Assembly (NCBI GenBank): GCA_026387265.1
Contig: JAPLLZ010000054.1
Location: 1 to 51,669, forward strand
Direction of reading: 5' to 3'
DNA from: Candidatus Omnitrophota bacterium
GTDB lineage: Bacteria > Omnitrophota > Gorgyraeia > Gygaellales > Profunditerraquicolaceae
Length of the DNA stretch: 51,669 nucleotides
The notes beneath the pieces were generated by a model. That model did no database searches. It was not told the origin of the DNA and was given only the letters and a program-made list of their open reading frames with translations. Of this stretch, positions 1-21,539 are shown in pieces. Each line of letters opens with the position of its first letter. Position 1 is the first letter of the stretch. Position numbers and translations under genes: made by a program.

Positions 1-3000
1 ATAGAAGATATCCGCCGTACCCATGCTACCTTTATATAGCCAGGTAATATTTTTATCCGTCGCCCCAACTAACCAGTTCTGGCTGGCATCCGGCTGCTGA
101 ATGGTGAATGAACCGATGATATCAAAACTGGCACTGGTGCCGTAGACATTGACATTACCGTTATCTACCACCCTAACCTTAATATCATCACTAATCGCAT
201 CGGGGATATTGTTCCAGGTATAATTTTGTGTCGCATCCACAGTACCGGTATCATTAATGACATTGGTAAATTCACCTGCATTTTTAGAATAATACAATTT
301 AACGTAGGAGACTTTAGTGGAACCATTTAAGCTCCAGGCAATGGTGTTAGAGTTAGAGCCGACCACTAAATTTACATCCTGGGCCGGCTGGCTTACGGTT
401 ATCTTAGGTCTCATAGAGAAGGCCGCCGCAGATACACCATACACATCCGGATATCTTAATGGGTCAGCATCAGATACCCTAATAAAACAGGTCTCGGAAT
501 TCTCATCGGCAACTGAGGTCCAAGTATAAGAGTTAGCTCCAGGAAGATGTCCGCTATGATCAGCAATAATTGTACTCAAGCCCCCCGTGGGGGTAGTTTT
601 ATATTCAATTTTTACATTAGAGATTGTTCCATATTCATACCAGCTGATATCTTTGGAATCTCCTTTATACCAGACCTGGCCGCCGTTAGGAACAATATCG
701 GTAATCGCACCCAATATTTTTATAGCATTAGCACAAACAGCAGCAACATTGACATCGGCAGAATGGCTTATTCTAACTTTTACACTATTACTGACCGCAT
801 CAGGAATTTCCCAATCAAATGTTTTTTGAACATTATGAGCAGAGTTAGCCACTTCCTGAATTAAATGCGTCTGGCCTTCATCGCTAAAACCGTTCGTAGA
901 ATATTCTACTTTAATCGGAGAATATGTTCCTTGTGGAGTCCATTTGATCTGATGAGTTGAACCAACTGCCCATTTCAACCCGGATTCAATCGGCTCATTC
1001 ATAACAATTTTACCTTCAATCTCAAAGGCATCACTCTCTGCGAATACCTCGGTATTATTCACTTGTTCTATCCGCACCTTAGCTGCTTTGGCATTATTAG
1101 TGATTGAATCCAGAGGCAAACTAAATCCCGCGTATGGGCTGGCGTTAAAAGCAACAGTAGCTACAGCAGTTCCCCAGGGAGGATTACCGGTTTTAGAAAA
1201 ATAAATACTTACATTACCCATCGGCGCGGTACCCAGAGTAGTCCAGGCAATCGAGAATGGATCACTGATATGGCCGATCGTAGCAGTAGTCGGAGCAGTA
1301 ATACTGATCCCGCTTTTAACCATAAAGCTCGGGCTGGGACAATAGACTACGGCATATCCGGCATCCGATACTTTAATTTTAGCACCAGCGGCGGATAGTA
1401 TATCCTGATTTGTAGGAATGCTCCAATCATACGGGCTAAGCGCAGAACCACGGGAAGCAACAATGTTATAAGCATAAAGATCTGCACCGTTATCCTTGGA
1501 ATAATCGATACGGACATTATCTACTATGCCGGTAACTGACCAAGCGATATTGTTATTGCTTGTACCAATCGTCCATTTATCCGTAGCAATAGGCGAAGTA
1601 ACCGCGATAATTGCACGGACTTCAAAAGTTGCAGATATTGCCCGGGTTGCTTCTTCGTTATTCGGATCAGATATTCTTAACTTACAAGTTTTGGAATTAG
1701 TCGTAATAGGAACTGACCAGTTATACTCACCTGTGTTATCAAATAACCCAGTGCCTCCTCCTATATTATTATAGGCAATGCCATCTGTGGAGAACTCTAG
1801 TTTTATCTGAGGAATATTTGTTCCAGTCTTGCTCCATTTAACCAAATAGCTTGAACCAGCGGGTAAAACTTCTCCATCTGCCGGGCCAGGATCATTAAAG
1901 GTAAATGATCCCTTAATCTTAAAGGCCACACTTTCATCTAATTCTTTATTAGGATTACCAACAGAGGTAACTTTTACTTTTACGCTATTTGATACTGAAT
2001 CAGGTATAGACGGAGACCATGTCCAGCTTCCTGAACCGCCCGTACCTTTAGAAATACCTGTAGCGATCGGATCGCCATAACCAGTACCGTAATCATAGTA
2101 AACATTTACATCTGATATGCTTCCTGTATATAACCAGGTAATATTTTTATCCGTAGACCCCACTGTCCAGTTAGAAGTATCATTTGGCTGCTGAACAGTA
2201 ATGGAACCAATAATGTTAAAAACCGCAGACAAACCAAAAACATTGGGATTACCCGTCCCTCCAGTTTTATCCACAACCTTAACTACCGTAGTGCCTCCAA
2301 GATTATCCGGGATGCTGCTCCAATTACAAGTCCCTAACGTCGCATCAACTCCAGTAAGAATCGTCTTATCAAACGGACCGCTTATACCATTGGTGCTAAA
2401 AAGCACATCCACATTTGAAACTTTGGCTGAACCATTTAAGCTCCAGACAATGGCATTACTATAAGAAGTCCCCACAATAAAATCCGCCCCCAGTACCGGC
2501 TTGCTTACGCTGATTACCGGCCGCATGGAAAACGGCGCCGCAGACTCAATCGGTATCGCTAAATTATTGTGGTCGCTTATTTTAATATAGCAATCTTCAC
2601 TGTTGATATCCGGCACGACCGGCCAGATATATTGATTGCTGCCGACACTATGCCCGGGATCATTAAGTACAATAACACCATCGTAACTTCCGCTAAAAGA
2701 AGTTTTATATTTAATATCTACATTAGTAATCGTGCCACTGGCCGTCCAGGAAATAGTTTTATTGGTTTCATCTTTATACCAAATCTGGCCGCCGTTAGGG
2801 CTCATCGCCGTAAAAGCGCCTTTAATGGTAAATGGATTATCGCTGGCATCACTCACTGGTAAACCGCCGATACTAGTCAAGCGTAGATAAACAGTATTGC
2901 GGATAAAATCAGGAACTTCCCAGGGAAATGGTAATGTCGCAGATGGCCAACCAGGATGCGCAGTATGTAAATCCGTAGCAAAAGTCGGATCCGTAGAATA

Positions 3001-6000
3001 TTCAATTTTTAAATTACCAATAGTCCCAGTCTTCTCCCAAGTTACATCAAAATTCGCACCGACCGCTAAAGTATTATAGCCATTGGGATCCGTAAGCAGT
3101 ATCGAGCCCTTAATATAGTTGTCCGCGGTAGTCTCTCCGAATACTTGCGCGTTACTCTTGTCCGAAACTTTAACTTTAGCAGTAGACGTAATCGTATCCG
3201 GAACCGTCCAGGCGTAAGTCTTAGTTCCGGCAGGCAAAGCACCCGCCTGATCAATAATAGAATGCCATAATGTTCCATCAAAATAATCAATCACATAACC
3301 CGGGATATTACCGTTAAAAGTCCACTCCAGAGTAAAAGGTTTACCGACGACTAACGTCTCGGCGTTCATCGGATGAACCATAAATATACTACCGATAATT
3401 GCGTTTTCCCCGGTAGAGATATCAATTACATCGTTGGCATTAGTTTTTTCATAAATACGCGCCTGAACCGTTGCGCTAGGATCATCAGGAATTGTCCAGT
3501 CAAATTCAGCCGTTGCCCCTGATGTTCCGGCATTAATATCTTCTGCACCAATCACATTCTTCCATTCGGTATGCCCGGAATCAGTAGAATATTCTATTTT
3601 ACATTTACCGAGCGTACCGGTAGGAATCCATTTAATTAGATAGTGATTGGTAATGGGCATATTCACATTGGCATTAGGCTGCACCAATTGTAAAACTCCC
3701 ATAATGGCAAATAACTGAGAATCGCTTTTTACAGTGCTATCGCCAACCTTAGATATCCGCACTACCGTATCACCATTAGGGCTATCTGGAATAGTCCAGC
3801 CATATTTTAAAGAAGTAGGATCCAAATTATCGGCAATCGCCGGGGTCTCCCAAGTACTTCCGGCATCTAATGAATATTCTATCTTTATCTTCTCAACCTT
3901 ACCTTTAGGGGCCAGCCACTCAATATCCGGGCTTGCTTCAACCCGCCATTTAGAATTCGCGTCGGGCTTAGTAATCTCCAGGACCGGTTTAATCTTAAAA
4001 TCATTAGTACTAACTCCATATACGGTAGGTTCAGTTGAATCGCTCACCCGGATACGGCAGGTATCAGAAGTAACTAAAACATATTGTCCTGTGGGAATAG
4101 GCCAAGTATAAGGATGCGAGTTAGCGGCGCGTCCGGCCAGAACTTCAATAGGATAACCGCCTGTTCCGCTGGCCGTATCCAGATAAATATCAACGTTGGC
4201 GATGGTGCCGGTAAAACTCCAGTCGATATTATTAGATATGCCGTTTACCGTCCAGGTTTCGGGACTGCCGGGATTTTTCCCCGGAGCAACCAAAGTAACT
4301 GTGCCATGAACCGAGAAATCCGCAATTGATGCATCATTAACATATGTTGCATCAGAAACCTGCACAATCTTTACCCTATATTTATTACTGGTAGTATTAG
4401 GAACCGGCCAAGAATAGTGACAGATATGGCTGCCGTCTTCATTATTATTATAAGACTTAGTGGTAATTAAATTAGGATAACCGTCCAGGCCGCTGTTGGT
4501 ATCATAATATAAACTAATATTGCCAAGGGTACCGGTATATTTCCATTGGACATCAATAGGATCGCCGCCCACATGATAAGGAGCGCTATTATTAGGTGAG
4601 CCGCCCGGCTCAGGCGCCAAATCCAGAGAACCTTTGATCTGGAAGGCTTCTGATTCATCATTAACATCAGTATCGGTTTCCGCTTCAACCTTAATCTTAT
4701 TATCCACGTTAAGATCTACAGCATCTGGAACAGTCCAATTATAGTTAGGCAGCGAAGAATCTACACCGGTAGCAAAAGCCGCTCCGTAAGTTACGCCGTC
4801 AGGAGCAAAATAAAAAGCCAACGTGCCGATATCGCCGGTTTTAGACCAGGTGATCAGATGGCCTGAACCTACAATTAAAGCCGTGGCATTTTGATTGGAA
4901 TTATTAGGGCTGGTAATCGCCACCGTCCCCTTAACCTCAAAAGTATTTTCGGAAGTAATATTGATATCATTGGGGAAAGCATTGCTTTCCACGCGGATAC
5001 GCAATTTATCGCTAATCGGACAGGCTACCGGATCCCACAAATACCCATCAGCATTCAAAGTATTGGTAATAATCGTCCCAGTCGATCCGCCGTCGATGCT
5101 GTATTTTATATTTACCGTAGGCACATTACCTTGAGTAGTCCAGGTAATATTACGCTGCTCTCCTAAACGCCAAACCTGGCCGCCATTAGGCACCAAGTTA
5201 ATCAGGCGAGAACGTATGGTCAAAGGCTGCGCAGAAACAGAATTAATCGCTGAATCCGAGCTACTCACTACTTTGATTTTTACCTGGGTATTTTTACCAT
5301 TATCTCCGGCTTTAAAAGGATTACCATTGACTGGTAAAGTCCAAGTATAGGTACCATTACCTGTACCTGCTGGAATAGTATTGGTATTATCAATGACATT
5401 AATAAAAAGATCGTTGCCATTATCTTTAGAATAAAATAAATTTACTGTTCCTAATTGCCCGGTAACATTCCAATTTATCAGCTCTTCGGTTCCGCATAAC
5501 CAAGTTAGCGCCGAATCTCCAGAGTTAATCGAAGGACGCGTAAGTGTAACTGTCCCGCGGATAGTAAAATCATTTTCGCTTACTGAGAAAACTTCAGTAG
5601 CTTTTCCTGTTTGATAAACTTTAACGCGCGCTTCTTGTCCAACAATCCCGGCCACATCCGGTATCGTCCACTCATACGCCCCGAGGCTGGCATTTACGCC
5701 GTTAACGATAAAACCTTGATAGCCGTCAACACCACTATTGCCATCCCAGCGTAATTCCACCGTACCAAAGGTAGTCGGATTAGCAGTCCAGGTAATATTT
5801 AAAGGATCCCCGACAAATTTACTAATCCCGGTGGCTGTCGGATAAGTTAATTTAAGATAAGGAATTACTTTAAAAACCGAGGATGCACCGGCGGTTCCGG
5901 TGGTCAAATCCTCATCGCCGTCCAAAGCAACTTTAATTTTAACCGTGTCACTTCTGTGTGCAGGTAAAACCGTCCATTCGTAAGTTCTGGGAGTAGCAAT

Positions 6001-9000
6001 ATTTACTACGCCTTCGGTTAAAAGCACCGGCCAGGAAGTTCCTCCATCTAAGGAAAGGCGGATATCCGCGGTTCCGGTTATAGTACCAAAAGTAGTCCAG
6101 GTGATAACTTTGGTATTACCTTCCCCGGCATCAGTAACCCTTAAGATCTCATTAAGATGCGGCTCACCAACCGTAATGGTTCCTTTAATACTAAACGGGA
6201 CATCAGAATCATCATAAATATTCTCATTATCTTTATTGCAAACGCGGATTAAAACATTATTAGCGCCCAGATCATTAGGCACCGTCCAATTGAATGTCTG
6301 CATTACCTCCTGGGTACCGGCAGCAAGATTATTTTCCGGACGGGCATTTGCACAATAATTCCAAGAACCTGCCCCGACTTTATATTTAATCACCACATAA
6401 TCCATCGCGCCATGTATGGTCCATTTAATCGGTTTAACTTCATTATATCTCCAGATCTCTCCTCCAACAGGCTCATTCACAGTGATAGAAGCCTTCAAAT
6501 GGAAATCTGCGCTTACACCGTAAACCGTAGGATCATTTGCTTGCACGACTTTAATTTTAGAGGTGGGACTTGAACCGGTGACCGAAAGAGGAATATTCCA
6601 AATCCATGATCCACCCGCCGCATCAGTACCGGCAGCAACACTGCTGGCAATCGGCAATTCCCCATAAGTAAAACCAGCGTTACTGGAATAAAATATATTT
6701 ACTGTACCGTCGCTTGTGCCCCCTCCTAATAAACCCTTCTTAGACCAGGAAATCGTTTTAGTGTCTCCAGATAACCAAATCTCATCAGTAGTAGGAGAAA
6801 CATTATAAATATTGCCTTTTAAAGTAAAATTACTGGTGGGGCTTTCCACCAACCCGGCATCTCCGTAATTAAGAATAATTTTTAATTTATTCTGCGTGCC
6901 AATTAAATTCTCGCCGCCTAAACTTGATGGAATACCTGCCCAGCTCCAGGTGTTTCCGCTAGAACCGTCGTTGCCGGGAACAGCCACAGCCGTTAAGGTC
7001 TGGTTAAAATTGGTTCCGTCAGTAGACAACTTAATCGTGGCATTTGCCGGAGTGAGCCCGTTTAAGTTTCCATTCGTGGCCCAGGAAATATCATGCGTTT
7101 CTCCAATTAACCAGGTATTCGGAGGCTGGACAATAGTAAACTTTCCCCGGATGGAAAAATTAGCGTCTGAAACATCATAAAATCTGGTCGGCGTACCCGG
7201 ATCTTTATCAGAATCAATAACCCGCACCCTTAGCTGATTACCCACCAGATTACCGGAAGTGCTATAACTAGCCGGAACCGTCCATTCCCAACGCCCTTCA
7301 TTTTCTACGCTGGAGTTATTATTCACATCCAGCCCGGTAATTAAGGCCAAGGGAAGCCAGCTTGAGCCAGCGTTTGTCGAAAGTTCAATCCTTACTTTAT
7401 GTGCACCGTTAGTTCCCGTACCCAGCATACTCATCATATCGGCATACTTCCAGACAATATCGTGATTTTCACTTACCGCCCAACTTTCACCGCCGTTGGG
7501 GGAGATCACGGTAATCGGCGTCAACTCCGTGAGCGCCCAATTAAGCGTTACGTTACCAGTAGTTGTAGTATTAACGCGGGATATAGTAAAAGAATTCACC
7601 GTATCGGTTTCGCGAGCGGTATCTTCAAGTTGCCACTTGCCTAAAGTAGCATTGTAGCCAAATTTATTGACCGTCCCCAAGTAAGCACTCGCCACCCATA
7701 TTTTATCTAGGTCATTATCATATGCTATACCATACGGATACGAATCAGCAACTAATGAATCGATAACTTCCCCACTTTCAGGGTCAATTACGTCGACGAC
7801 ATTGGAGCCTTCGCACACCACCAACATCTTATTACGCGTACTATCCCAGGCCATCTGCCTGGGCATAAGATCAGTAGGTAAAGCATCAGTAGTAGAATTG
7901 GTAGTGACTGTAGCACGATTATCCGTCATAAATGCTCTGCGCACATAGTTACCGGTAGAGGAATTGACAATCGATGAGACTGCCCAGAGAGTATCCTGAG
8001 TCATACTGCCAACACCTTTAGTCGGCGCATAGAAAATCATAGCATAGTATTGATTTGTAGAACCAAAATCCGGGTTTAATGAACGATTACCATCCGAACA
8101 ACGAAACCTATATATATTGTCATCCAGCTCGGTGACCACCCACATGTAATTTGTGGCATCACTTGGCGTAGGATCATAACATATCCCGGTAGCGCGTCCT
8201 TGCGACCCGTTATAGTTAGTCACCGTATAAGGACTAGCATACATCATCTTGGAGGTAACTGGATAAGGAGTGGCCCCTGTATAATAGTTAGCAGTCCAGG
8301 CACAGTTTGTACTCGGATCCCAGGAAATATCGACGGGATTTTGCCCGACACTGTAGGTGCGCTCAAACGCCCCGGTTGAGGCATTTAGGCGCGTAACGGA
8401 ATTAGCAGAGTAATTGGCAATCCATATTGAACCGCCGCCATTAGTTACGGCAATCGGGTTGGTGCCGGTAGCGTAACTGCCGATTTTTGCTCCGGTGGCC
8501 GCGTTATATTTGGTAACGGTATTGGCCGCATAGTTGGTAACCCATACCGCCTTAGGATTAGTTGATGAATCATAACAAACTCCTTTTACGCTTAACTTTG
8601 TAAAACTCGGAGCAAAGCGTACCTCGTCATCATAGGTAGCAGTAGCTGTATCTGTCGGGCCTGATGTATTTATTATCGGGAACATGCGCATGGTATCAAT
8701 TACCGGGTTCAGTGTTGGATCTGCTGGACCAACTGAACCAGTGGCTACAGCTGTATCGTATACCGAACGAACATTAGTACCCTGATCCGTCATTTCCACC
8801 ACAAACCAATCTATAACAATATTAGAGCTTGCTACAGTTGCGGCGCGATCAAATTGTACTTGCGAAGCATTCAATATCTTACCCCGCACATTATCATATG
8901 CCTCTACACCGACAACATACCTATTTGATCTATAAGTATAGATTAAAAATGCATGGTCTAGATTAGTAATATCAGGGTCAGCGTGGCCGGGATTTATATT

Positions 9001-9698: not shown

Positions 9699-9699
9699 T

Positions 9700-11441: not shown

Positions 11442-11456
11442 TCTTTACCTTCTTTT

Positions 11457-11485: not shown

Positions 11486-11500
11486 TTTTTATAATTTTAC

Positions 11501-11768: not shown

Positions 11769-13250
11769 CTAAATCTTGACATTAGCTTTAATTATTTTTT
11801 GTTCTTTTGTCGGTTTATCCTCCTTATTCGTAGCCACAGAGTTAATTTTATTTACCACCTCCATACCAGAAACAACTTCTCCAAAAATAGTATGCCTTCC
11901 GTCCAAGCCGGGAGTAGATTTTACGGTAATAAAAAACTGGCTGCCATTAGTATCCGCGCCGGAATTAGCCATGGCTAAAATCCCGGGTTTATCAAATTTA
12001 ACCTTATCGCTAATTTCATCACTAAAAGGCTTTTTCCAGATTGACTCTCCTCCAGTTCCTGTAGCTGTAGGATCACCGCCTTGAATCATAAAATCTTTAA
12101 TTACCCGGTGAAAAGTAACTCCGTTATAATAACCTTTTTCTACCAAGCCTATAAAATTCTCACAGGCCAGCGGGGCTATCTCCGGGAACAATTTAACTTT
12201 AATCTGCCCCTGATTAGTTACAATAATCACTTCTGATTTTTTCTTCATCTCCACGAGCTTATCCGCATCTTCTTTATCTTTAACAAAATCTTTTAAGTTG
12301 GCCCGTTTAAAAAGATCATCTAAGAAATCCTGGGCAATTTTACGCTTGCGGCCGACAGTGAGCATCTTACGGTAATATTCCTGTTTAGCCGCATCATATT
12401 CTTTTAAATTCGCCTTCCTGGCATAAAGCAGGCGGAAAACTACATCCCCATAATAATTCTTGGCTGCAATGAAATCTCCGGTTTTAGAATTAAGAATCCG
12501 GTAAGCGTCGTCCTTAGGAATCATCCAGAGATCGATTAAAGCCTCCAGTGACATAACATTAATCCATGATGCGCCCTTTTGGCCTAATGGCTTTTTTTGA
12601 ACATAAGTATCAAACCATAATTTTGGATTTTTCTTTGCCTTGCGCGCAAACTCCTGAGCTTCTTTTTGTTGATCTTTGCCAAATAAAATATACTCACTTT
12701 CAAAAGAATTATAGCTGTTAAGGAATTTATCTTTCATTTCCTGCTCAGCAACCTTAACTTCAGGATCAAGCTTAGTTTTAAGCAGCTTATTCACCATTAA
12801 CAATTCTTCAATACGCGTTTCAAAGGTTGCCGGGTCTTCGTTAAAATTTACTAACACCCAACCCCGGTATTTCTCCCCTCCATATTCAACGTTTTTTTCT
12901 GCCAGCAACCGCTTAACTTCTGACAAAACATCCTCTTTAGATATAAAGATACCAGTATCCCTGGCTTCTTTAATAAAAACCAGATTCTGCCACGCTTCCT
13001 GACGCGTATCTTCATCTGTGCGTTCAGCTTGCATTCCTGAGCGTGTAAAAAGCAGTGCCGTTTTGTAATAGTTAAGGAAGGTTGCCCGACTAATGGGCTT
13101 ACCAAATGCCTCTCCAACGGTTTCAAACTTAATAATGTCCTCAAATTTGTAGGCCCAAGCAGAAGAAGCAACCAGTAAAATTAAAAAAATAGTGCTTAAA
13201 ATTATTGTAGGTAAGTTTAATTTTTTATGTGTTTTTATGGTAGTATTCAT
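11769..13250 (-). CDS. Exported foldase: SurA/PrsA-like N-terminal region plus C-terminal cyclophilin-type peptidyl-prolyl isomerase
   Basis: Signal/TM at the N-terminus. C-terminal cyclophilin motifs APLACENF, YYNGVTFHRVIKDFMIQGGDP, GILAMANSG, TNGSQFFIT and LDGRHTIFGEV. Confidence 0.9.
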   Translation of the reverse strand: MNTTIKTHKKLNLPTIILSTIFLILLVASSAWAYKFEDIIKFETVGEAFGKPISRATFLNYYKTALLFTRSGMQAERTDEDTRQEAWQNLVFIKEARDTGIFISKEDVLSEVKRLLAEKNVEYGGEKYRGWVLVNFNEDPATFETRIEELLMVNKLLKTKLDPEVKVAEQEMKDKFLNSYNSFESEYILFGKDQQKEAQEFARKAKKNPKLWFDTYVQKKPLGQKGASWINVMSLEALIDLWMIPKDDAYRILNSKTGDFIAAKNYYGDVVFRLLYARKANLKEYDAAKQEYYRKMLTVGRKRKIAQDFLDDLFKRANLKDFVKDKEDADKLVEMKKKSEVIIVTNQGQIKVKLFPEIAPLACENFIGLVEKGYYNGVTFHRVIKDFMIQGGDPTATGTGGESIWKKPFSDEISDKVKFDKPGILAMANSGADTNGSQFFITVKSTPGLDGRHTIFGEVVSGMEVVNKINSVATNKEDKPTKEQKIIKANVKI

Positions 13251-13254: not shown

Positions 13255-13797
13255 TTATTTTTTAGTATTTACAATTGTAAATTTAACTGGATCAGAAACT
13301 AACTGCTCGCCAAAAGCGTCCAAACCAATTTCTGCACCAAAAACATTCTGATAAACCGCCACCACCGTATAAGTCCCCGGTTCAGTTATCTCGAAATATC
13401 CTTTTAAATTCCGGGGATATTCAGATTTCGCTTCCTCATTAGGAGCTAATAATTTAAAATAATCTGCCTTAGGATAACCGGTTTCAAAAAAATTCTGGCA
13501 GGGCAGTTTTGCACCCGATGGCGAGGTTAACTCAAAATAAACCTCTTTTTGGTTTTTAGCAGCCTTTTGAGCGCTGATATAAAACCTCTGATTCACCATC
13601 ACCGGATTGTTCCCTAGATTTTTCAAACTAAAATTAACATTAATTGGCTCATTAGGCGAGTATTCAGTTTTTTCTAATATCAGGCTAAATTTAAGTTGGG
13701 TATCGGCACATAAAACAGGCCTGCCTAAAACCAACACTAAAACAACTGTAAAAATAGCTGTCGCCAACCCGCAAAAAAATATGTTTTTTTTGATCAT
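13255..13797 (-). CDS. Exported hypothetical protein, Ig-like fold
   Basis: Signal peptide; LKFSLILEKTEY.PNEPINVNFSLKN ... ITEPGTYTVVAVY beta-sandwich pattern. Confidence 0.65.
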   Translation of the reverse strand: MIKKNIFFCGLATAIFTVVLVLVLGRPVLCADTQLKFSLILEKTEYSPNEPINVNFSLKNLGNNPVMVNQRFYISAQKAAKNQKEVYFELTSPSGAKLPCQNFFETGYPKADYFKLLAPNEEAKSEYPRNLKGYFEITEPGTYTVVAVYQNVFGAEIGLDAFGEQLVSDPVKFTIVNTKK

Positions 13798-13857: not shown

Positions 13858-14442
13858 TTATTGATTAATAACAGCTTCAGACGCTGCTGGCTCCACTACT
13901 GCCGGAATAGGCTCTACTACAGCCGCCGGAGGCGGCACTACTGCGGCCTTATTCGACGCCAAGCTATAGAAATTAAAGTCCGAAACTCTATTTTTCTTAT
14001 CTCGAATACTCAAAACCCCCCGCATTATCCCGTCGCTACCTATATCGCCACGCCAAAAAGCTGCGCCTTCTTTCTCTGAAACTTGCATCGTTTCCCAGGT
14101 ATAGGTCTCCCCATCTTCTAACAAGCGCATAGAAAAATTAGTAGCCTCAAACCCCCTAACCACCATGTTTTTAGAACTTACTTTACCATCAATAAAACTT
14201 ACAACATCTTTTTCGGTTTTACCTTTACCAGACATTGCCTTAGTCTCAATAGCCCATTCTGTACCATTAAGCTCTAGTTTTTTCTTTGCGACCATATCTT
14301 GTGTTTTACTATTTAGTTTTTTTACAACAGGCGCAGCTGTCTTTTGCTCCGCTTCTCCTTTAGCAAACCACTCCGCAAAAACAGAACTTGAATTCATCGC
14401 CAAAAACCCTAAAACTACAAGCACCGAAAGCAATCTCTTCAT
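13858..14442 (-). CDS. Exported hypothetical protein; stand-alone paralogue of the RAYT-fusion C-terminal domain
   Basis: Signal peptide MKRLLSVLVVLGFLAMNSSSVFA. Shares L.GT.W.I, WETMQ, WR.DI.SDG.M.GVLS.R and DF.F with residues ~317-415 of 10176..11441. Confidence 0.8.
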   Translation of the reverse strand: MKRLLSVLVVLGFLAMNSSSVFAEWFAKGEAEQKTAAPVVKKLNSKTQDMVAKKKLELNGTEWAIETKAMSGKGKTEKDVVSFIDGKVSSKNMVVRGFEATNFSMRLLEDGETYTWETMQVSEKEGAAFWRGDIGSDGIMRGVLSIRDKKNRVSDFNFYSLASNKAAVVPPPAAVVEPIPAVVEPAASEAVINQ

Positions 14443-14542: not shown

Positions 14543-15577
14543 TTATTGCACCCGCTGCTTACCATCATAAGCTTCCCAAGTAAGCAAATATTTCTTAACC
14601 CAATCTATATCTTTATCATCACCTTTAGCTAAACTCAAGTAATATCTAAAATGTTTGCTGGCTTTTTGGCGGTTCACCAGGTACTCTGCATAAATGTAGC
14701 CTAAATTAAAATGCGCATAAGCATGATTGGGATCGATCTCAACCACCTTCTCAAACTCTATCGCTGCGCGGTCATACTGTTTATTTTTGGAATAAAAAAT
14801 ACCTAGGTTATAATGCATCTGCGCAGTTTCTGCTATTAATAACTTGTTCTGCCGGGCAAGCTCCGCAATCTTCTTAGGCACATTTTGCACTTCATCCCAC
14901 ATCATCTTATTTTTCTTCAGCGCTTCAGCCAGTTTATCTTTACAATCTTTTAATTGCAATTTTAACGAAGTATTCTCCAACTCTAGCTTAGTCTTCTGCT
15001 GCCTAATCTGATCAAATTCACTTTCCTGGCGTTTGGCGCTATTTTGAATGGCAGTTTTTTCTTTTTGCAAGTCTCCAAATTTTTTATTTAAATCTTTAAT
15101 CTTAACGGTTGCCTCTGCTTTATCGCAAGAGACTTTAAGAGTATTCCATTTTGCAATCAAGTCTTTTTGCGCTGCCTGAAGGCGGCTAATTTCATCCTTC
15201 TGGCTCAGATTACTACCCTGTAATTCATTTTTTTCTTTAGCCAGTGCGGCTAAATCTTTATTAATTTTCTCCAGAGAAATCGCCAACTCAACCGCCTTAC
15301 TTCTTTCCGGCAGAAGAGTTTTAATTTGCGTCATAAGATTTTCCCGGTCAACTTTAACCGCTTCATTTTCCTTAAGCAGCTGGGCATTTTCATTCTTAAG
15401 GGTAACACTTTCCTGGCTTAATCTTTGATAACCCGGATTGATATCTTCTAGCTGTTTAGATAAATCCTGTACTCGCTTAGTTAGATTCTTCGACTTATAA
15501 GCAAAAAATATAATACCGATACAGGCTACTAAAATCGCTACACCCACAACTATTGTCTTTAACTTTAGCTTACTCAT
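14543..15577 (-). CDS. Membrane-anchored coiled-coil protein with C-terminal TPR repeats
   Basis: Start re-assigned to ATG 15577 (AGGAG SD, overlaps the secretin stop). N-terminal TM, long heptad region, and TPR motifs AQMHYNLGIFY...AHFNLGYIY. Confidence 0.8.
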   Translation of the reverse strand: MSKLKLKTIVVGVAILVACIGIIFFAYKSKNLTKRVQDLSKQLEDINPGYQRLSQESVTLKNENAQLLKENEAVKVDRENLMTQIKTLLPERSKAVELAISLEKINKDLAALAKEKNELQGSNLSQKDEISRLQAAQKDLIAKWNTLKVSCDKAEATVKIKDLNKKFGDLQKEKTAIQNSAKRQESEFDQIRQQKTKLELENTSLKLQLKDCKDKLAEALKKNKMMWDEVQNVPKKIAELARQNKLLIAETAQMHYNLGIFYSKNKQYDRAAIEFEKVVEIDPNHAYAHFNLGYIYAEYLVNRQKASKHFRYYLSLAKGDDKDIDWVKKYLLTWEAYDGKQRVQ

Positions 15578-17591
15578 TGCTTGCGTCTCCTTTAAGTGTC
15601 GGCTTATATTCCTCTTCCTGTTTAATACTAGAATAATCACGATAGGATTTAATTTCTTCTTCGGGTGCTCCTTTAGCCTCTACCTTTTTCTCCGGAACGT
15701 CTGCATCTTTAAAATCCGGCTTTTCTGTAAAAGGCGCATAAGCATTATACTCTTTATTCGGCTCATCCTGGAATCTTGGCTCACGCCTGTCCCCAGTAAC
15801 TAAAATATCCCCGGAAGTAATATGCGGCGTAATCATTACTAAAAGCTCGGTTTTCTCAGTTTTACTTGTCTTGTTTTTGAAAAAATAACCTATCAGGGGA
15901 ATCTTACCTAAAAATGGGAATTGTTCTACAGCCGCAGTTTTATCTTCTCTACGCAAGCCTCCGATAATAATCGTTGAACCATCCTTAACCATTACTGTAG
16001 TTTCTGACATAGAGGTATCAATAATCGGAATTTTATTACCGCTGGGAGTATCCAAAAAAGAAACAACGCTGGAAATTTCAGGTTTTATTTTCATCGTAAC
16101 ATACCCGTCATCATTTATCGTCGGCGTTACCGACAACTGGATACCGACATCCACAAAAGTCACCTCTTCCGAAACTGTAGAGGTACTTTGGCCGGTAGTA
16201 GTAGTAGAAGTAACATAAGCCTGGCGTTCACCTACGTGAATTTTGGCTTCCTGGTTATTGACTATCGAAATTTTCGGGTTAGAAAGAATCTGGGTGTTCC
16301 CCAAAGTCTGAACATATTTGAGTACAATATCGACGTCACGCTTAGAATCCATAATACCCAAATGCAATACCCCCGGGCCGGCTTTGGAAGTAGATGAAGT
16401 GGTTCCGGTATTACCGGTAAAAGGATAGGAACCAATTTGATTATTCATTGTATTTTTTAAATAATCATACCGGGACTGAAAAGTATTAGTGGTATCTGTT
16501 TCGATAGGCTTAATCACGCTAAAAGGATTGGCTCCGAAATAAGCCATCCCGTATTCAGATGCCGCAGCAAGCAAACCTTCCCATTCAGCCCCCGTTTCTA
16601 ACTGATCCGATAACTTAACTTTTATAATTGTACTATCAATTAATACTTGTTTTGTTTTCTGGTCAAGGCTAGCAATCAGTTTTTCAATATTCACCATTCT
16701 CTCAGGTAACGTCTGTATAATCACCTGATTGGAGCGTTCGTCTGCTTTAATTGTACCAACTTTTTTCGTATCCAGCTGCGCCTTCAACTGCTCCTCTACA
16801 TCTTTGGCTTTAGCATATTTTAATTGAAACACCCGGACTAAATTTTTTTGTTCTAGCGTAGACAGGGCTTTTTCGATTTCGGCAATTTTCTCCGGCGTAT
16901 CCATAATTAAAGCTGTACCAGAATCAGGCTCAACTAAAACCCTGCCGATTTCACTCTTTAAAGCATCCAGCATCGCAAATACCTGCTCAGGTATGGCATA
17001 TTTAATTCTAAAGACTTTGACTTCACGAATATCCGCAAATTTTTTCCCGAAGAGAGATTTATACTCTTCGCCGGTCATAATGTTATAAATTTCTCCCTCT
17101 TTAGTATACGCCAGGCCGTTTGAACGCAACATTATATCAAAAACATCTCTGGCCGGAACATTTAATACCATCAACGTAACCCTGCCGGAAACATCTTTTG
17201 TAGAAATCATATTGATGCCTGTTTTCAACGATAGGAACTTTAGAGCATCGGTAACTTCTATATTACGTAAATCTAAAGAAATCCTCGCATTCATCCCCAC
17301 AGCTACAGGATCGGCGGCATTTTGAACGAGCGACTTTGATACTGGCTGCAAAGGTGTTTCTGCTTGCGTTGCGGCAACAGGCAAAGCTGAATTTCCAACA
17401 GCAGTTACCGCAGTGGATATATTTGCCTGATTCGCTACTACAGGCGCCGATACCACCGGTTGAGAAGTAACCATAGAGGTATTCGAGGCCTGAGCTAAAC
17501 CAGCCGGACGCTCTTCAGCCTGAGCTTTATAAAAAAGAAAAAAGGAACAGGCCAGGATAATAAAAATAATTGTTCTTTGAATAATTTTCAC
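15570..17591 (-). CDS. Outer-membrane secretin (GspD/PilQ family)
   Basis: ISLDLRNIEVTDALKFL N0 domain, DERSNQVII N domains, ILSNPKISIVNNQEAKIHVG, VGIQLSVTPTIN and PFLGKIPLIGYFFK...KTELLVMITPHI secretin signature. Confidence 0.93.
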   Translation of the reverse strand: MKIIQRTIIFIILACSFFLFYKAQAEERPAGLAQASNTSMVTSQPVVSAPVVANQANISTAVTAVGNSALPVAATQAETPLQPVSKSLVQNAADPVAVGMNARISLDLRNIEVTDALKFLSLKTGINMISTKDVSGRVTLMVLNVPARDVFDIMLRSNGLAYTKEGEIYNIMTGEEYKSLFGKKFADIREVKVFRIKYAIPEQVFAMLDALKSEIGRVLVEPDSGTALIMDTPEKIAEIEKALSTLEQKNLVRVFQLKYAKAKDVEEQLKAQLDTKKVGTIKADERSNQVIIQTLPERMVNIEKLIASLDQKTKQVLIDSTIIKVKLSDQLETGAEWEGLLAAASEYGMAYFGANPFSVIKPIETDTTNTFQSRYDYLKNTMNNQIGSYPFTGNTGTTSSTSKAGPGVLHLGIMDSKRDVDIVLKYVQTLGNTQILSNPKISIVNNQEAKIHVGERQAYVTSTTTTGQSTSTVSEEVTFVDVGIQLSVTPTINDDGYVTMKIKPEISSVVSFLDTPSGNKIPIIDTSMSETTVMVKDGSTIIIGGLRREDKTAAVEQFPFLGKIPLIGYFFKNKTSKTEKTELLVMITPHITSGDILVTGDRREPRFQDEPNKEYNAYAPFTEKPDFKDADVPEKKVEAKGAPEEEIKSYRDYSSIKQEEEYKPTLKGDASNE

Positions 17592-18253
17592 TTGAGCTCA
17601 AACTCCTCGTTATCTAAACTTAATACAATTTTATCCTTAAAAATAGCCTGCACCCTTGCTTCACCTACCATATCCCCTCTTTTTACAAAAAATGTTTTAA
17701 GTTCCTTTGTATCTTCAATCATTGCATCCGGATCGCTAGACCAGGAAATTCCGACTAATTTTAAGCTTGCCGCTAACTCCAGGCTTTTTGAAGAAGGAGA
17801 AGTATCCACAACCGCTTTCTTAGGCCCCATGGTAAAAATATCTCTTGCCCTAACCTTTTCTAAATAATAAGAGGCGGCCTTGTTTAATCCCGTGGGTTCC
17901 GGAAAACTAGTTTCAATCTTAGCTGCCGGCGCATTTGATTCTAAACGCGGCGTCTTATTTACATTAATTAAAGAAACAACAAAATTAACCGAAAAATATG
18001 TTAAGAGCAATGCTGCTATAAAACCAAGAATTCTGTTTACGGCTTTAACATCTAATTGCTCCAGATTAAAACCTTGCGACCATTTTCCTAATCGTACTTT
18101 TAAAAAAGAAATCCTCCCCAGCCATGCCCCAAAATCCAACCAGCTCATGTTGCGCCGCGACGACTGAGCATGCACCCCAATGGAATTCATCTTAGAGGTT
18201 TCAATAATCTTTAAAAGCTGTTTTTCTGGAGTGAGAGATCGTTCCTGTGCCAT
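17588..18253 (-). CDS. GspC/PilP-like secretion-system accessory protein
   Basis: Single TM followed by RDIF...LKLVGISWSSDPDAMIEDT...FVKRGDMVGEARVQAIFKDKIVL (HR domain-like); coupled to the secretin gene. Confidence 0.75.
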   Translation of the reverse strand: MAQERSLTPEKQLLKIIETSKMNSIGVHAQSSRRNMSWLDFGAWLGRISFLKVRLGKWSQGFNLEQLDVKAVNRILGFIAALLLTYFSVNFVVSLINVNKTPRLESNAPAAKIETSFPEPTGLNKAASYYLEKVRARDIFTMGPKKAVVDTSPSSKSLELAASLKLVGISWSSDPDAMIEDTKELKTFFVKRGDMVGEARVQAIFKDKIVLSLDNEEFELK

Positions 18254-19080
18254 CCGCTTGTTATATCCTCATTAATTATTTCCTGAATTAACGCCGCGTC
18301 AATCACAAATTTATTTTTAAGCACCAGGTTTTTAAGTGCCCGATGGCAAAGCATGGTTATCCTCCTGGGATACCCCCGGGTATATTGATGCACCTCTTTA
18401 ATTGCATCATCTAAAAACAGATGCATATTCGCAGAATAACCCGCCTGCTTAACTCTAAATTCAATCATCTCCCTGGTTTCTTCAAAATCCAAAGGATTCA
18501 AAGTATACTTAAAACTAATCCGGTCAAAAAAATTAGAGATCTCTGTAATTTTAGCATGTAATTCCAGCTGACCCAAAAGCACTAATTGAATAAGCTTAAA
18601 CTCATTAGTCTCATAATTTAAAAGCACACGCAGGACTTCCAATGATGATTCATTTAATTTCTGAGCTTCATCAATAATCAAAGTAACGGTTTTGTTCTCC
18701 GTTACTCCTTTTTGGAACAAAAATCTTTCTAACCCTTCCCGCAATGCCACAATTCCCATGGGAGTATCATTATTAATAGCAATTTCAAAATTTTTGGCCA
18801 AAGAAACAAGAAAAGATTCTTCACTTTCAAAAGAAGGATCTAAAATAATATGAAAAATAAAATCCGGCCGGTCCTTTAATTCTTGGATCAATTTTCTAGA
18901 CAAGGTTGTCTTGCCGGTTCCCACATCGCCCAAAATTACAGAAAGGCCTCTTTTAAGCCTAAGCTCAATCAAGATGTTGGCTAAAGCAGATTCATGCTCT
19001 TTAGATAAATAGAAAAAATCCGGATCCGGGCTGGTAGAAAAAGGCTCTTTTTCGAATCCTAACACCTTGAAATAGCTCAT
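18211..19080 (-). CDS. exeA: ExeA/GspA-family AAA+ ATPase
   Basis: YFKVLGFEKEPFS.SPDPDFFY, Walker A GDVGTGKT, Walker B LIIDEAQ and GYPRRITMLC. Confidence 0.88.
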   Translation of the reverse strand: MSYFKVLGFEKEPFSTSPDPDFFYLSKEHESALANILIELRLKRGLSVILGDVGTGKTTLSRKLIQELKDRPDFIFHIILDPSFESEESFLVSLAKNFEIAINNDTPMGIVALREGLERFLFQKGVTENKTVTLIIDEAQKLNESSLEVLRVLLNYETNEFKLIQLVLLGQLELHAKITEISNFFDRISFKYTLNPLDFEETREMIEFRVKQAGYSANMHLFLDDAIKEVHQYTRGYPRRITMLCHRALKNLVLKNKFVIDAALIQEIINEDITSGWHRNDLSLQKNSF

Positions 19081-19150
19081 TTTTCAATCCTAAGTTAATA
19101 ACTTAAAAGGCAATTAAAAATTAAACCTGATTTCATCTAGGAAACCAGGT

Positions 19151-19459
19151 TTAGCTTGGTGTTTGCGAATCAGAAGCAATAATACTTTCCGGGCTATTCG
19201 CAAAGTTTTCGGTATTTGCTTCCTCCATCAATTTTTTCCGGATCAAGCTTAACGAATAACCTTGCTGCATTAATTCTCTAAATTTTAGCCGATTCTTAAT
19301 CGTACTTCTATCATAATACCTAATGTTAGCTTTTTTAATGATTACCGGTAACAGCCCAAAATTGGTATAATGATTTACAATCTGGTAAGAAACATTAAAC
19401 TCGCTCATAATTTCTTTAGCGGTGATCATATCATTTTCATCGATGCGATTGTTAGTCAT
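19151..19459 (-). CDS. MerR-family HTH regulator (short, no obvious sensing domain)
   Basis: ITAKEIMSEFNVSYQIVNHYTNFGLL...RYYD...GYSLSLIRKKL winged-HTH pattern. Confidence 0.8.
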   Translation of the reverse strand: MTNNRIDENDMITAKEIMSEFNVSYQIVNHYTNFGLLPVIIKKANIRYYDRSTIKNRLKFRELMQQGYSLSLIRKKLMEEANTENFANSPESIIASDSQTPS

Positions 19460-19709: not shown

Positions 19710-20099
19710 TTATTTTTTAAGGTTCCTGTGGGTCCTAAGCACTGCTTCTAATAAAGGCAAGCTGGCATCAAAATCAGCTCCCTTATAAAATACTCCAGAC
19801 ATACCATGAGACCTGGCTTCCTGAATTTTTGGATCGGCGATATATGAACTAATAATAATTATCGGGGTAGTCGCATCAAAAGTCCTAATGCTCTTTAATG
19901 CATCAACACCGTCCATAATCGGCATTCTTAAATCCATAAAAACTATATCCGCTTGTTTCTGCCTGACTAATTCAATCGCCGCCTTACCATCAGCAGCAGT
20001 AATCACCTTGTAACCTTTTGACTCAAGCCAAAACGTCATCAGGTTCCTGAAATCAGCCTCATCATCAACTACCAGCACTCTAATACTTGTACCATTCAT
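19710..20099 (-). CDS. Single-domain response regulator (CheY-like receiver)
   Basis: VLVVDDE, IVFMDLRMP (phospho-Asp) and IIISS motifs. Confidence 0.92.
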   Translation of the reverse strand: MNGTSIRVLVVDDEADFRNLMTFWLESKGYKVITAADGKAAIELVRQKQADIVFMDLRMPIMDGVDALKSIRTFDATTPIIIISSYIADPKIQEARSHGMSGVFYKGADFDASLPLLEAVLRTHRNLKK

Positions 20100-20123
20100 G
20101 GATCAACCTCCTTATTAATTATT

Positions 20124-21539
20124 CTAATTTAATGGAACAGTAAAACTAAATTTTGCACCCTGCCCATTATCGCTCTCCACCCAAATCTTCCCACCGTGCA
20201 ACTGAACAATTTCTTTAGCAATTGATAAACCTATTCCTGTACCGCTAACATCGGTAGCCACTCTTTCCCCTGTCTGATAAAATTTATCAAAAACTTTTAC
20301 TAACTCATCTTTGGAAATTCCGATTCCAGTATCCTGGACACTAACCATGACCTCCCGGTCACCGGAAGGCTTTGCTTCCACTGTAATCGTACCATTCTGT
20401 GGGGTAAATTTAATGGCATTTCCAATCAGATTATTTAATACCTGAATTATTTTATCCGGGTCTACCTTAACTTGAGGTAAATTGACTTGAGCTTTATTCA
20501 CCAATGCAACTGTTTTAGCATTCGCCCAAGCAGTTAATCCATCAATTGATTCTTGGATGACTTTATCAATAGCGCAAGCGGTTAAAGTAACATTCATCTT
20601 GCCTGCTTCAAGTTTTGAAAGATCTAATAAATCATTAATCAGGAGGCTAAGCCTTTTGCAATTCCTGGAAGCAATGGAAAGGAACTGATGCTGATTATCC
20701 GTAAGCGCTCCCCCGGCATTACTAAGCAAAAAAGTTATTGCTTTATCAACAGAAACCAAAGGTGTTCGTAATTCATGAGTTACGTTAGCTACGAAACTCG
20801 CCTTTAACCGGTCTATTTCTTTCTGTTTAGTAATATCGCTTAAAACAGAAACCATTCCTACGGTCTGGCCATTTTCATTCTCGATAACTGCGCTACTGGC
20901 CCGGATCGTCTTACTTGTTTCATTATTCTGACTGAATAATTCAATCTCTTTACCGTTGTTACTCTTAGAATCTTTAACCAAAGACACTAGTTGTTCATCT
21001 TTAAGACTGTCATCTATGGCCTTGCCGATTTTATCTTTTTTACTGATCCCCAGAAGCCTTTCCGCAGCCGGGTTCATCATTACCACTTTGCCCTGGGCAT
21101 CAACTACCAGTAGGCCTTCGGCAACACTGCGGATAACCGCGTCTGTCTGCTTTTTCTCAGAAATAACCCGGTTGTACTTATCCCAGACTATTTCTTCATT
21201 TTTGGTACTCTTCTCAATAATACTTTCATATTTCTTGCTAACTTCTTTAGTATTTTGCTCTATTCTTTTATTAAGCTCCTGGCCGAATATGTTAGAAACA
21301 ATTTTAGCAACTTCCTGGGAGTCCTGCTGAGAACCCAATACCGGGCCGATCTCTCTTAAAACAGCATGTTTTATAGTTTCATTGTCGATGAATACAACAG
21401 GTGCAGCCCCACCCCTTCTTCGCGCATCTTCTTCCCGTATTCTTGCTGCCTCTGATAGTTTTGCCCAATGGATCAATAACAGCGCAATCAATATGCTAGC
21501 AATAAATGTTGCAATATATATTATGGTTAAGAGTGGCAT
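20124..21539 (-). CDS. PAS-domain sensor histidine kinase
   Basis: N-terminal TM, PAS (MNPAAERLLG), H-box THELRTPL, N-box QVLNNLIGNAIKFT and G-boxes DTGIGI / GTGIGL. Confidence 0.95.
   Translation of the reverse strand: MPLLTIIYIATFIASILIALLLIHWAKLSEAARIREEDARRRGGAAPVVFIDNETIKHAVLREIGPVLGSQQDSQEVAKIVSNIFGQELNKRIEQNTKEVSKKYESIIEKSTKNEEIVWDKYNRVISEKKQTDAVIRSVAEGLLVVDAQGKVVMMNPAAERLLGISKKDKIGKAIDDSLKDEQLVSLVKDSKSNNGKEIELFSQNNETSKTIRASSAVIENENGQTVGMVSVLSDITKQKEIDRLKASFVANVTHELRTPLVSVDKAITFLLSNAGGALTDNQHQFLSIASRNCKRLSLLINDLLDLSKLEAGKMNVTLTACAIDKVIQESIDGLTAWANAKTVALVNKAQVNLPQVKVDPDKIIQVLNNLIGNAIKFTPQNGTITVEAKPSGDREVMVSVQDTGIGISKDELVKVFDKFYQTGERVATDVSGTGIGLSIAKEIVQLHGGKIWVESDNGQGAKFSFTVPLN

Follow-up and report, generated by a model that had tools for sequence, protein, structure and literature searches.

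A putative secretion- and pilus-like gene cluster of Omnitrophota with a giant surface-protein gene in its middle and, in some lineages, a cyclic di-GMP riboswitch

Does a gene for a protein of thousands of residues, lying on the same strand as a secretin operon in an Omnitrophota genome, belong with that operon to one system, and if so, of what kind? Omnitrophota are abundant, ultra-small, and apparently host-dependent bacteria that to our knowledge have never been grown in pure culture, and the literature takes its main clues to their attachment to or attack on other cells from giant genes and pilus/ATPase loci. The locus at issue occupies positions 1-21539 of a 51,669-nucleotide (nt) stretch, hereafter the window, which is the entire contig JAPLLZ010000054.1 (C55) of a 1.56-Mb metagenome-assembled genome (73 contigs, 87.5% complete). 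We consider it reasonably probable that this locus is the first part of a single cluster, conserved throughout the phylum and resembling type II secretion systems (T2SS) and type IVa pili (T4aP), in whose middle lies a giant surface-protein gene. In what follows, L numbers denote related loci, G numbers genomes (G000 being the window's own), C numbers contigs of the own genome, and f and g numbers families and genera; protein domains were called with Pfam and NCBIfam, the riboswitch with Rfam, and promoter and hairpin features by a consensus scan.

Every open reading frame (ORF) of the locus lies on the minus strand, as do all of its features given below, in an order that the ORF positions bear out as first described: a histidine kinase and a response regulator, a MerR-family protein, an ExeA/GspA-like ATPase, a GspC-like membrane protein, a secretin, a tetratricopeptide repeat (TPR) protein, an exported beta-barrel protein (par194), a second exported protein, and a SurA-cyclophilin chaperone, followed by a cyclic di-GMP (c-di-GMP) riboswitch, a fusion protein with a Y1_Tnp (HUH) domain, a small exported protein (sm163), and the giant protein. 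Pfam and NCBIfam matched the gene list of the preliminary description nearly item by item; most items stand, and the one that falls away is a 112-amino-acid (aa) "small exported protein," which is the frameshifted N terminus of the giant protein. The genes from ExeA to SurA overlap or lie no more than about 100 nt apart, as do the Y1, sm163, and giant genes, and the two sets look like tight operons, with 130 nt between the SurA-cyclophilin gene and the riboswitch. No T2SSE or T2SSF gene occurs on contig C55, in agreement with the earlier statement that the motor ATPase and platform lie outside the window.

The preliminary description took the two operons for one integrated system, and in relatives they are indeed co-located: the Y1/giant cassette has the ExeA-GspC-like-secretin-TPR(-barrel) block immediately 5' of it, on the same strand, in about 20 of some 32 Y1-anchored loci with informative upstream sequence, and a very large ORF lies downstream of the block in 18 or 19 of 22 loci chosen by the ExeA-like gene alone. 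The adjacent loci of the first sample (the window, L010-13, L022-24, L030, L031, L036, L037, L040-44, L050, L053, and L054) span at least nine families (f1, f9, f10, f13, f16, f20, f30, f48, and f50), across which the Y1 fusion is 31 to 40% identical and the secretin about 50% identical. The ExeA-anchored sample combines four top matches lacking a full Y1 fusion (the best ExeA matches of that kind with enough downstream sequence) with 20 loci drawn from across the identity range. In all four of the former (L059, L061, L062, and L063), the secretin block runs directly into sm163 and a homologous giant gene; among the 18 informative loci of the latter (L072-L091), 14 or 15 have a same-strand ORF downstream that measures from 1,000 to over 4,900 aa and in most cases is truncated where the fetched stretch ends. 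One exception, L086, has only an 861-aa repeat protein downstream. The secretin block precedes a giant or very large ORF even in loci that have neither riboswitch nor Y1 gene. Since the riboswitch is absent from Y1-less loci and present in only 2 of 18 ExeA-anchored loci, riboswitch and Y1 gene behave as an accessory unit between the secretin block and the sm163-giant pair.

A second block of machine genes lies beyond the giant gene. That gene is complete on long contigs, encoding 8,098 aa in G035 and 8,459 aa in G210, and in G127, a genome of the same genus as the window, it is in two pieces around an N gap; all three genomes have the same gene set 3' of it. The order in G035 is a small protein; an F1-like ATPase set (OSCP/b-delta-like with a transmembrane [TM] helix, alpha-like, gamma, and beta); a stand-alone MshEN protein; GspE with MshEN, T2SSE, and C-terminal PilZ domains; GspF; an MA-family peptidase; and lastly GspG, a T2SSJ-like protein, T2SSK, a PilM-PilN fusion, and a PilO/GspM-like protein. 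These G035 genes were called by Pfam or by ORF pattern; the alpha-like one was assigned by ORF pattern only, as were the F1-like genes of G210 and G127. In the complete genome G149, F1-like, GspE, GspF, PilMN, GspG, and GspK genes stand directly upstream of ExeA-GspC-like-secretin-TPR, after which come a short Y1 gene and then a giant ORF exceeding 2,671 aa, the whole cluster being on one strand. Because the two blocks are contiguous in G149 and flank the giant gene elsewhere, we take them to be halves of one machine; the giant gene is located either between both halves or after them. The secretin block, earlier proposed as an export module, is not a self-standing unit of that kind but the outer-membrane half of a T2SS-like machine.

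The own genome holds the other half on a separate contig, C32, which starts at GspE residue 388 (62% identical to the GspE of G127) and is collinear with the downstream block of G127 through GspF, the pseudopilins, and the PilMN/PilO-like genes; the tail of its GspE has the PilZ motifs RxxxR (RVYRR) and NxSxxG (NISAGG). The GspE/F and pseudopilin genes, whose location elsewhere was to be sought, have thus been found beyond the giant gene in relatives, on C32, and contiguous with the secretin block in G149. The own genome encodes four secretins, two of which sit with ATPases of their own (Tad on C48; GspE/F on C66), and seven GGDEF proteins. F1-like genes beside pilus/T2SS genes were detected in G035 and G149 by Pfam/tblastn under a within-10-kb criterion. 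The F1-like set embedded in the T2SS-like cluster extends over L065:18952-L066:3416 in G035 and L092:7926-12691 in G149, and among the ORFs annotated in these regions no gene for an a or c subunit was seen.

The two operons also have a domain in common. It had been noticed between the protein at 13858-14442 and the transposase-like fusion, and the relationship is real: residues 58 to 158 of par194 (13858-14442; 194 aa, exported, a stand-alone beta-barrel) align by BLASTP with residues 316 to 413 of the Y1 fusion at 43% identity (E = 4e-20), and the motifs WETMQ and WRG are invariant across an alignment of 22 stand-alone and fused copies. The AlphaFold2 model of the domain, with a predicted local distance difference test score (pLDDT) of 94.4, consists of an N-terminal helix and an eight-stranded antiparallel beta-barrel. 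It has no significant fold match among PDB structures; its best analogues there are generic small barrels, headed by the C-terminal barrel of fHbp (TM-score of 0.54) and followed by LolA, TbpB, and lipocalins, and the likeness being generic, we rejected assignment to any of these. On the modeled structure, the domain would be an undescribed family with a ligand-binding-barrel type of fold. In most of the loci examined, the secretin block has the stand-alone copy among its core members.

The giant gene of the window is cut by the contig end, and its main frame (1-9492; ORF 1-9384) encodes more than 3,128 aa. Its N-terminal fragment (9420-9698, with the ATG start codon at 9698) lies within the 112-aa ORF at 9420-9758 and provides a signal peptide ending in AQA, followed by mature AQVKR. 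Fragment and main frame form one continuous ORF in L011, an 85% identical relative, with respect to which the window's gene lacks one base near 9468-9485; the homologues all begin alike, their signal peptide being followed by (A/V/Y)Q(V/I)K(R/K). A fragment-versus-whole search resolves the window's portion into a unique head of about 600 aa followed by a tandem array of no fewer than 25 Ig-like repeats, each about 100 aa long (a whole-protein BLASTP self-comparison returned the identity match only), and the repeats match Ig-like Pfam families of the Kre9_KNH, Big_7, and Reelin-B types. The complete orthologues of 8,098 and 8,459 aa have one N-terminal signal/anchor and no other TM helix, and the tail of the G035 protein is coiled-coil-like. 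In an AlphaFold2 model of the first 400 aa (pLDDT of 69), the conserved first 300 or so residues form three beta-sandwich modules, for which the only PDB analogue, a borderline one, is the C-terminal domain of PCSK9 (E = 1.5e-3), indicating no function; a homology search with the 620-aa head gave 18 matches, mostly partial YVTN beta-propellers. Neither Pfam nor model comparison identified a binding domain in the giant protein. The label "adhesin" is reasonable because of the architecture, with its Ig-like repeats, and on such sequence grounds the protein may be called a putative adhesin. Membership in the giant-protein class of West-Roberts et al., which combines numerous TM segments with SecA_DEAD or C39/S8 domains, was rejected: the sole hydrophobic segment is N-terminal, and the only matches are to Ig-like/Kre9_KNH, Big_7, and Reelin-B families.

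Directly before the giant gene stands that of the conserved small exported protein sm163 (9700-10191; 163 aa, no Pfam match), which precedes the giant gene in relatives with or without a Y1 gene. In two loci, an extra multi-pass membrane protein of 730 to 770 aa with a TPR-like C terminus is encoded between the two (L019:11644-13959 and L022:11755-13953).

A possible working of the cluster can be pieced together from these parts. The upstream half would supply the outer-membrane and periplasmic components (the ExeA/GspA-like ATPase, a GspC/B-like linker, the secretin, a TPR assembly factor, the small barrel, and the SurA-cyclophilin), which in the window's lineage may be placed under a two-component system and the MerR protein. 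The giant protein, with its Sec signal peptide, beta-sandwich head, dozens of Ig-like repeats, and, in complete orthologues, coiled-coil tail, would be folded and handled in the periplasm and then pushed or displayed through the secretin, and the motor half beyond it (on C32 here) would contribute the F1-like ATPase, a GspE with putatively c-di-GMP-binding MshEN and PilZ domains, GspF, the pseudopilins G, J, and K, and the PilMN/PilO-like proteins. In a minority of lineages, a riboswitch-terminator, a twin palindrome, and a membrane-anchored HUH protein, whose presumed periplasmic barrel would be a paralogue of the barrel protein of the secretin block, appear to have been inserted between the halves.

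The riboswitch is a c-di-GMP-I (GEMM-I) aptamer (11560-11638; Rfam RF01051, 58.6 bits against a gathering score of 35), with a promoter-like site just 5' of it (11657-11686; by consensus scan only, 9/12 with a TG extension) and, about 30 nt 3' of it, an intrinsic terminator as expression platform (11500-11530; a GC-rich stem of 7 to 8 bp at 11530-11508 plus U8). Eleven orthologous leaders score 56 to 66 bits on the Rfam model, and a covariance model built from 14 aptamers places the riboswitch beside a Y1 gene, full-length or short, in 33 further loci, for a total of 44 with Rfam's 11. That c-di-GMP gates the giant operon, as had been suggested, would follow from the identity of the riboswitch; taken to mean an ON switch, the suggestion runs contrary to the architecture, which predicts OFF.

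The prediction comes from folding. All leaders of the class have a strong terminator 20 to 40 nt 3' of the aptamer, and both coexist in folds. In 14 of 34 leaders, at least 7 contiguous nt of complementarity occur between the ligand-binding 5' strand of the aptamer and the loop or 3' arm of the terminator (the pair GGCAAACUC with GAGUUUGCC; as a compensatory variant, GGUAAACUCAU with AUGAGUUUACC), whereas shuffled hairpins yield on average 1.4 such leaders and at most 5. For the window's leader, the ligand-free minimum free energy structure (-42.2 kcal/mol) is an antiterminator, in which the P2 strands of the aptamer pair with both terminator arms; when the aptamer is enforced, the terminator forms and is better than the alternatives by 7 to 12 kcal/mol. 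Because aptamer and terminator coexist and the alternatives to the terminator use aptamer nucleotides, we predict that this is probably an OFF switch, in which the c-di-GMP-bound leader would terminate transcription before the Y1-sm163-giant operon. Two points detract from the prediction: the window's clade is without the complementarity between aptamer and terminator loop found elsewhere, and the evidence on direction is thermodynamic folding and complementarity, not kinetic.

An ON switch, by which c-di-GMP would let transcription proceed into the giant operon, the usual pattern for adhesion genes, seems somewhat unlikely. c-di-GMP in general promotes attachment, and the linker AGCAGCU of the window's clade pairs with the 3' strand of the aptamer and resembles the 5' arm of the terminator; however, aptamer and terminator do not overlap, only aptamer nucleotides furnish strong alternatives to the terminator, and the pairing of the linker with the 3' arm is 6.9 kcal/mol worse than the terminator once the aptamer has formed, energies that disfavor an ON switch by this route. 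With the predicted OFF switch, bound c-di-GMP would end transcription ahead of the Y1-sm163-giant operon, and the GspE motor could be a target of the same messenger; conceivably, the 25-kb gene would be transcribed at low c-di-GMP and shut off as c-di-GMP rises, with the MshEN/PilZ GspE responding likewise.

Riboswitches of this class occur in other settings as well. The own genome has two more, at C48:46330-46418 and C49:1511-1589: the former, with no obvious terminator, directly precedes a multi-piece giant gene (3935+1830+3126+4896 aa) that follows Tad-type genes, and the latter, with a terminator, precedes the gene for a 108-aa exported protein on a 2-kb contig. In L053 (G175), a riboswitch at positions 851-943 lies downstream of the Y1 fusion gene and directly before the giant gene.

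The protein encoded behind the riboswitch of the window (10176-11441) combines a Y1_Tnp domain (PF01797, 43.2 bits against 23), resembling that of the transposases associated with repetitive extragenic palindromic (REP) sequences (RAYT), with one TM helix and the C-terminal beta-barrel; on the NCBIfam RAYT equivalog NF047646, it scores 73.7 bits, under the cutoff of 80. H60, H62, Y126, H128, and N130 are invariant in the Y1 domains of 20 diverse family members. The family counts 953 homologues, the named ones being from Omnitrophota, with full-length similarity at about 40% identity, and the full-length fusion is found in about 27 of 301 sampled genomes; the gene is single copy and has a fixed syntenic position. 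We rejected an active transposon in view of this fixed synteny and single copy, the fusion to a TM helix and a further domain, and conservation down to 31% identity. Short Y1 forms of about 340 aa (L046-L049, L051, L052, and L090) match residues 1 to about 270 of the fusion only and, by sequence, appear to be without the beta-barrel; their genes occupy the usual place after the secretin block, with a riboswitch in L046-L049 and L051 and, in L046-L048, a further MerR gene immediately 5'.

The leader also carries a twin palindromic motif, AAAGTG(C/T)CAGG(C/T)A, whose two copies, 20 nt apart, stand 3' of the terminator and 5' of the Y1 start codon (11455-11486); its form is AAAGTGCC-A-GGCAC, and a single copy is written as AAAGTGCCAGGCAC. 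It has 61 matches in 11.5 kb of leaders and 23 in 2.5 Mb elsewhere, a more than 1000-fold enrichment, and is present in the leaders of about 35 related loci, usually as two copies 20 to 21 or 31 to 32 nt apart, roughly whole helical turns; symmetry-preserving variants exist. Within the own genome, the motif is restricted to the Y1 leader, with no dispersed REP/REPIN family and no association with insertion sequence (IS) ends. Two other identities were set aside: a dispersed REP, given that the motif occurs only in the Y1 leader of the own genome, and a sigma-54 promoter, for which the GG-to-GC spacing is by eye unfit. The motif is a candidate cognate site for the HUH domain. In L043, which has a Y1 gene without a riboswitch, a copy lies just 3' of the Y1 gene.

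A tentative and rather doubtful proposal for the Y1-TM-barrel protein is that of a domesticated transposase turned trans-envelope regulator, with a ToxR-like topology: its periplasmic barrel would sense the apparatus or the giant fiber, its cytoplasmic HUH domain would bind or nick the palindromes of its own leader, and together with the OFF riboswitch it would decide commitment to the 25-kb gene. Such a regulator, if real, would be the first membrane signaling device derived from an HUH nuclease and equipped with a dedicated cis-element.

Several facts weigh against reading the locus as the first part of one machine that handles the giant protein. The 1-nt frameshift in the giant gene may stem from an error of assembly, from (recent) inactivation, or from a programmed shift. 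The most economical order, from C55 through the unassembled rest of the giant gene to C32, takes its adjacency from relatives. The F1-like genes of the cluster were not found in the own genome, where the only matches, at 44 to 46% on C38, are probably the housekeeping ATP synthase and where the region expected to hold them is unassembled. Elsewhere, the Y1/giant cassette stands beside an ExeA-like paralogue and glycan-synthesis-like genes, the latter called by sequence motif only (L018-20 and L029), shares a contig with the secretin block at a distance of 43 to 56 kb (G223, G290, and G294), or is on a different contig from it (genus g143), and among the ExeA-anchored loci, L075 and L076, which have two secretins, are without a giant gene nearby. 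Finally, synteny is the one basis for supposing that the giant protein is exported through the secretin, and we know of no T2SS cargo of 8,000 aa.

In another reading, which we regard as unlikely, the machine builds a pilus or pseudopilus for attachment to or motility on hosts, as Seymour et al. 2023 (PMC10066038) see it, and the giant protein is not its cargo, being instead a co-regulated surface fiber or a PilY1-like tip adhesin that would get to the surface along with the filament or beside it. Seymour et al. assign such clusters to type 4a pili and call the accompanying F-type ATPase "symbiotic"; PilQ slightly outscores GspD as a model for the secretin; the cluster includes PilM-PilN and PilO-like proteins; GspE carries MshEN like the ATPase of the mannose-sensitive hemagglutinin (MSHA) pilus; and the conserved N and C termini of the giant protein could serve as docking modules. 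However, the matches to GspG (T2SSG), T2SSJ, and T2SSK indicate a T2SS-type pseudopilus over a long pilus, and no retraction ATPase was seen in the cluster. That the giant gene is tightly embedded and has a dedicated small partner in sm163 is equally compatible with a cargo and with a structural partner.

Highly improbable, and already disfavored, is that the blocks are functionally uncoupled, with giant and mobile-looking Y1 genes accumulating at a permissive site by a housekeeping secretin operon: linkage is broken in about one-third of the Y1-anchored loci, a 2026 preprint reports transposase-rich flanks of giant genes, and the giant proteins 3' of the block are not all homologous to one another, but same-strand adjacency persists at 31 to 36% identity of the Y1 fusion in at least nine families and recurs in the 18 to 19 of 22 ExeA-anchored loci, the halves of one machine flank the giant gene or, in G149, both precede it, both blocks hold a barrel paralogue, and the Y1 gene is single copy and without dispersed repeats.

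The remaining genes of the secretin block vary in their constancy. At its head, the sensor histidine kinase (20124-21539; TM, PAS, HisKA, and HATPase_c by Pfam) is found only in some relatives (L010-13, L022, L036, L040, L041, and L097); it is followed by a single-domain response regulator (19710-20099; REC only, Response_reg at 96.2 bits) and a small MerR-family helix-turn-helix protein (19151-19459; MerR_1), the most constant regulator ahead of ExeA, which it precedes in at least 20 related loci. A terminator-like hairpin 3' of the MerR gene (19122-19153) comes from the consensus scan only. The ExeA/GspA-like ATPase (18211-19080; 289 aa) matches AAA_22 (PF13401, 70.1 bits) and, among NCBIfam models, best TIGR03015, the PEP-CTERM-associated ATPase (189.7 bits, under its cutoff); it has no peptidoglycan-binding Pfam match and so departs from ExeA/GspA, for which a TM segment and a C-terminal peptidoglycan-binding domain are expected. 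The gene is present at E <= 1e-60 in 187 of 301 Omnitrophota genomes. At L018:6909-7748, L019:7121-7936, L020:7161-7976, and L029:11604-12407, a second conserved context of the riboswitch-Y1-giant cassette, an ExeA-like paralogue (31 to 34% identical) stands with the glycan-synthesis-like genes ahead of the cassette in place of the secretin block.

The next gene (17588-18253), which overlaps those of ExeA and the secretin, encodes a GspC-like (or GspB-like) bitopic membrane protein of 221 aa that always stands between the two in the related loci examined. It has no Pfam match and no match among PDB sequences; residues 131 to 214 weakly match the NCBIfam model NF041515, GspC_delta (E = 7e-4, 19.4 bits against a cutoff of 150). 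The secretin (15570-17591) is of the GspD/PilQ type, with Pfam matches to Secretin (167.7 bits), two copies of Secretin_N, and STN/N0, and with NCBIfam scores of 263 bits for PilQ and 251 bits for GspD, both under their cutoffs. The membrane-anchored coiled-coil and TPR protein after it (14543-15640) matches TPR families in Pfam and, weakly, PilW, Tgl, and GltE in NCBIfam and might perhaps be a PilW/Tgl-like secretin assembly factor. Beyond par194 come the exported, possibly Ig-like protein of 180 aa (13255-13797; a weak BsuPI match only), kept in a subset of related loci, and the periplasmic SurA_N and cyclophilin peptidyl-prolyl isomerase chaperone (11769-13250; Pro_isomerase at 186.7 bits, SurA_N_2/3 weak). 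Block variants with two tandem secretin and two TPR genes occur in L037, L053, L055, L056, L074, L075, and L076; in L055, L075, and L076, the block terminates in a barrel protein and an ExeA-like paralogue. A giant gene is absent from the stretches fetched for L075 and L076, and none was seen in L055 or L056.

The locus exhibits a second class of giant protein, Sec-exported, Ig-repeat, and about 8,000 aa long, built into a T2SS-like machine, and some lineages have added a compact regulatory unit of riboswitch, palindromic cis-element, and a membrane HUH protein sharing a periplasmic domain with the machine. Its regulation offers testable handles in the RNA leader, the DNA/RNA motif with a soluble HUH domain, and a small beta-barrel with a confident model. 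Should the giant protein truly pass the secretin, the known size range of T2SS cargo would be extended by roughly 1 order of magnitude.

Among known systems, the nearest are those already reported from the phylum. Seymour et al. 2023 (PMC10066038) describe nonrespiratory F-type ATPase genes beside "type 4a pilus" clusters in all Omnitrophota classes, along with giant ORFs; West-Roberts et al. 2023 (bioRxiv 10.1101/2023.11.21.568195) found giant genes to be preceded by a T2SS-like locus and followed by pilZ genes, and a 2026 preprint repeats the analysis of the flanks of giant genes. Attachment or predation has been proposed in the first two. What the present locus shares with theirs is the phylum, a secretion or pilus cluster paired with an F1-like ATPase (here in the relatives G035 and G149 and, by ORF pattern, G210 and G127), and very large genes; the general kind, in which an Omnitrophota secretion/pilus cluster is accompanied by both a giant gene and an F1-like ATPase, is known already. 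The giants of West-Roberts et al. are multi-TM proteins of more than 20 to 30 kaa with SecA_DEAD/C39 domains, beside Tad/rcpC-type loci, whereas those here have about 8,000 aa, a signal peptide, Ig repeats, and no internal TM helix and lie between the secretin and the GspE/F/G halves. The accessible portions of these three sources make no mention of a riboswitch, a Y1/HUH protein, a secretin (or secretin-assembly) block, or the barrel family, nor does that of Seymour et al. mention a GspE with MshEN and PilZ; a full-text literature search on Omnitrophota and riboswitches returned only unrelated ComFB papers. The split architecture around a Sec-exported Ig-repeat giant, the c-di-GMP riboswitch of predicted OFF type, the membrane-anchored HUH protein with its twin palindrome, and the shared barrel family all appear to be undescribed.

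Canonical T2SS with GspA/GspB (ExeA/ExeB) are matched in the N0/N-domain secretin, in the AAA_22 ExeA-like ATPase gene overlapping that of a bitopic partner, and, in relatives, in the GspE/F/G/J/K and L/M-like genes of the same cluster. A T2SS is indicated by the secretin with N0 and N domains in the window and by GspE, GspF, GspG, and minor pseudopilins including GspK in the cluster (G035, G149, and C32). The cluster departs from canonical systems in several respects: its ExeA has no peptidoglycan-binding domain, a GspC/B protein can be assigned only weakly, PilM-PilN and PilO-like proteins take the place of GspL/M, GspE has both MshEN and PilZ, and the cluster also encloses a giant gene and an F1-like ATPase.

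The MSHA type IV pilus of Vibrio has a secretin (MshL), an ExeA-like ATPase (MshM), a TPR protein (MshN), and the c-di-GMP-binding MshE. Our cluster likewise combines an ExeA-like ATPase with a secretin and a TPR protein, and its motor ATPase has the c-di-GMP-binding MshEN domain (compare PMC7096442). Unlike in MSHA, the pseudopilins are of the GspG/J/K type and the gene order is different, and the window's secretin is under the MshL cutoff (183 against 250 bits).

On the regulatory side, the Cd1 c-di-GMP-I riboswitch before the flgB operon of Clostridioides difficile is an OFF switch. As in riboswitches of that type, a GEMM-I aptamer over the gathering score is followed here by an intrinsic terminator, and ligand-induced termination is predicted; by contrast, the genes controlled would be those of an HUH-domain membrane protein and a giant surface protein within a secretion cluster, and a conserved twin palindrome follows. 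With RAYT and IS200-IS605 TnpA proteins, the Y1 fusion has in common the Y1_Tnp fold, the intact HUH motif and catalytic Tyr, and a palindromic hairpin-like motif by its gene, but it differs from them in its fusion to a TM helix and a periplasmic barrel, its single copy fixed in a secretion cluster, the absence of dispersed REPs, and a score under the RAYT cutoff; if anything, and by analogy, it may work like a membrane-tethered regulator of the ToxR/CadC type.

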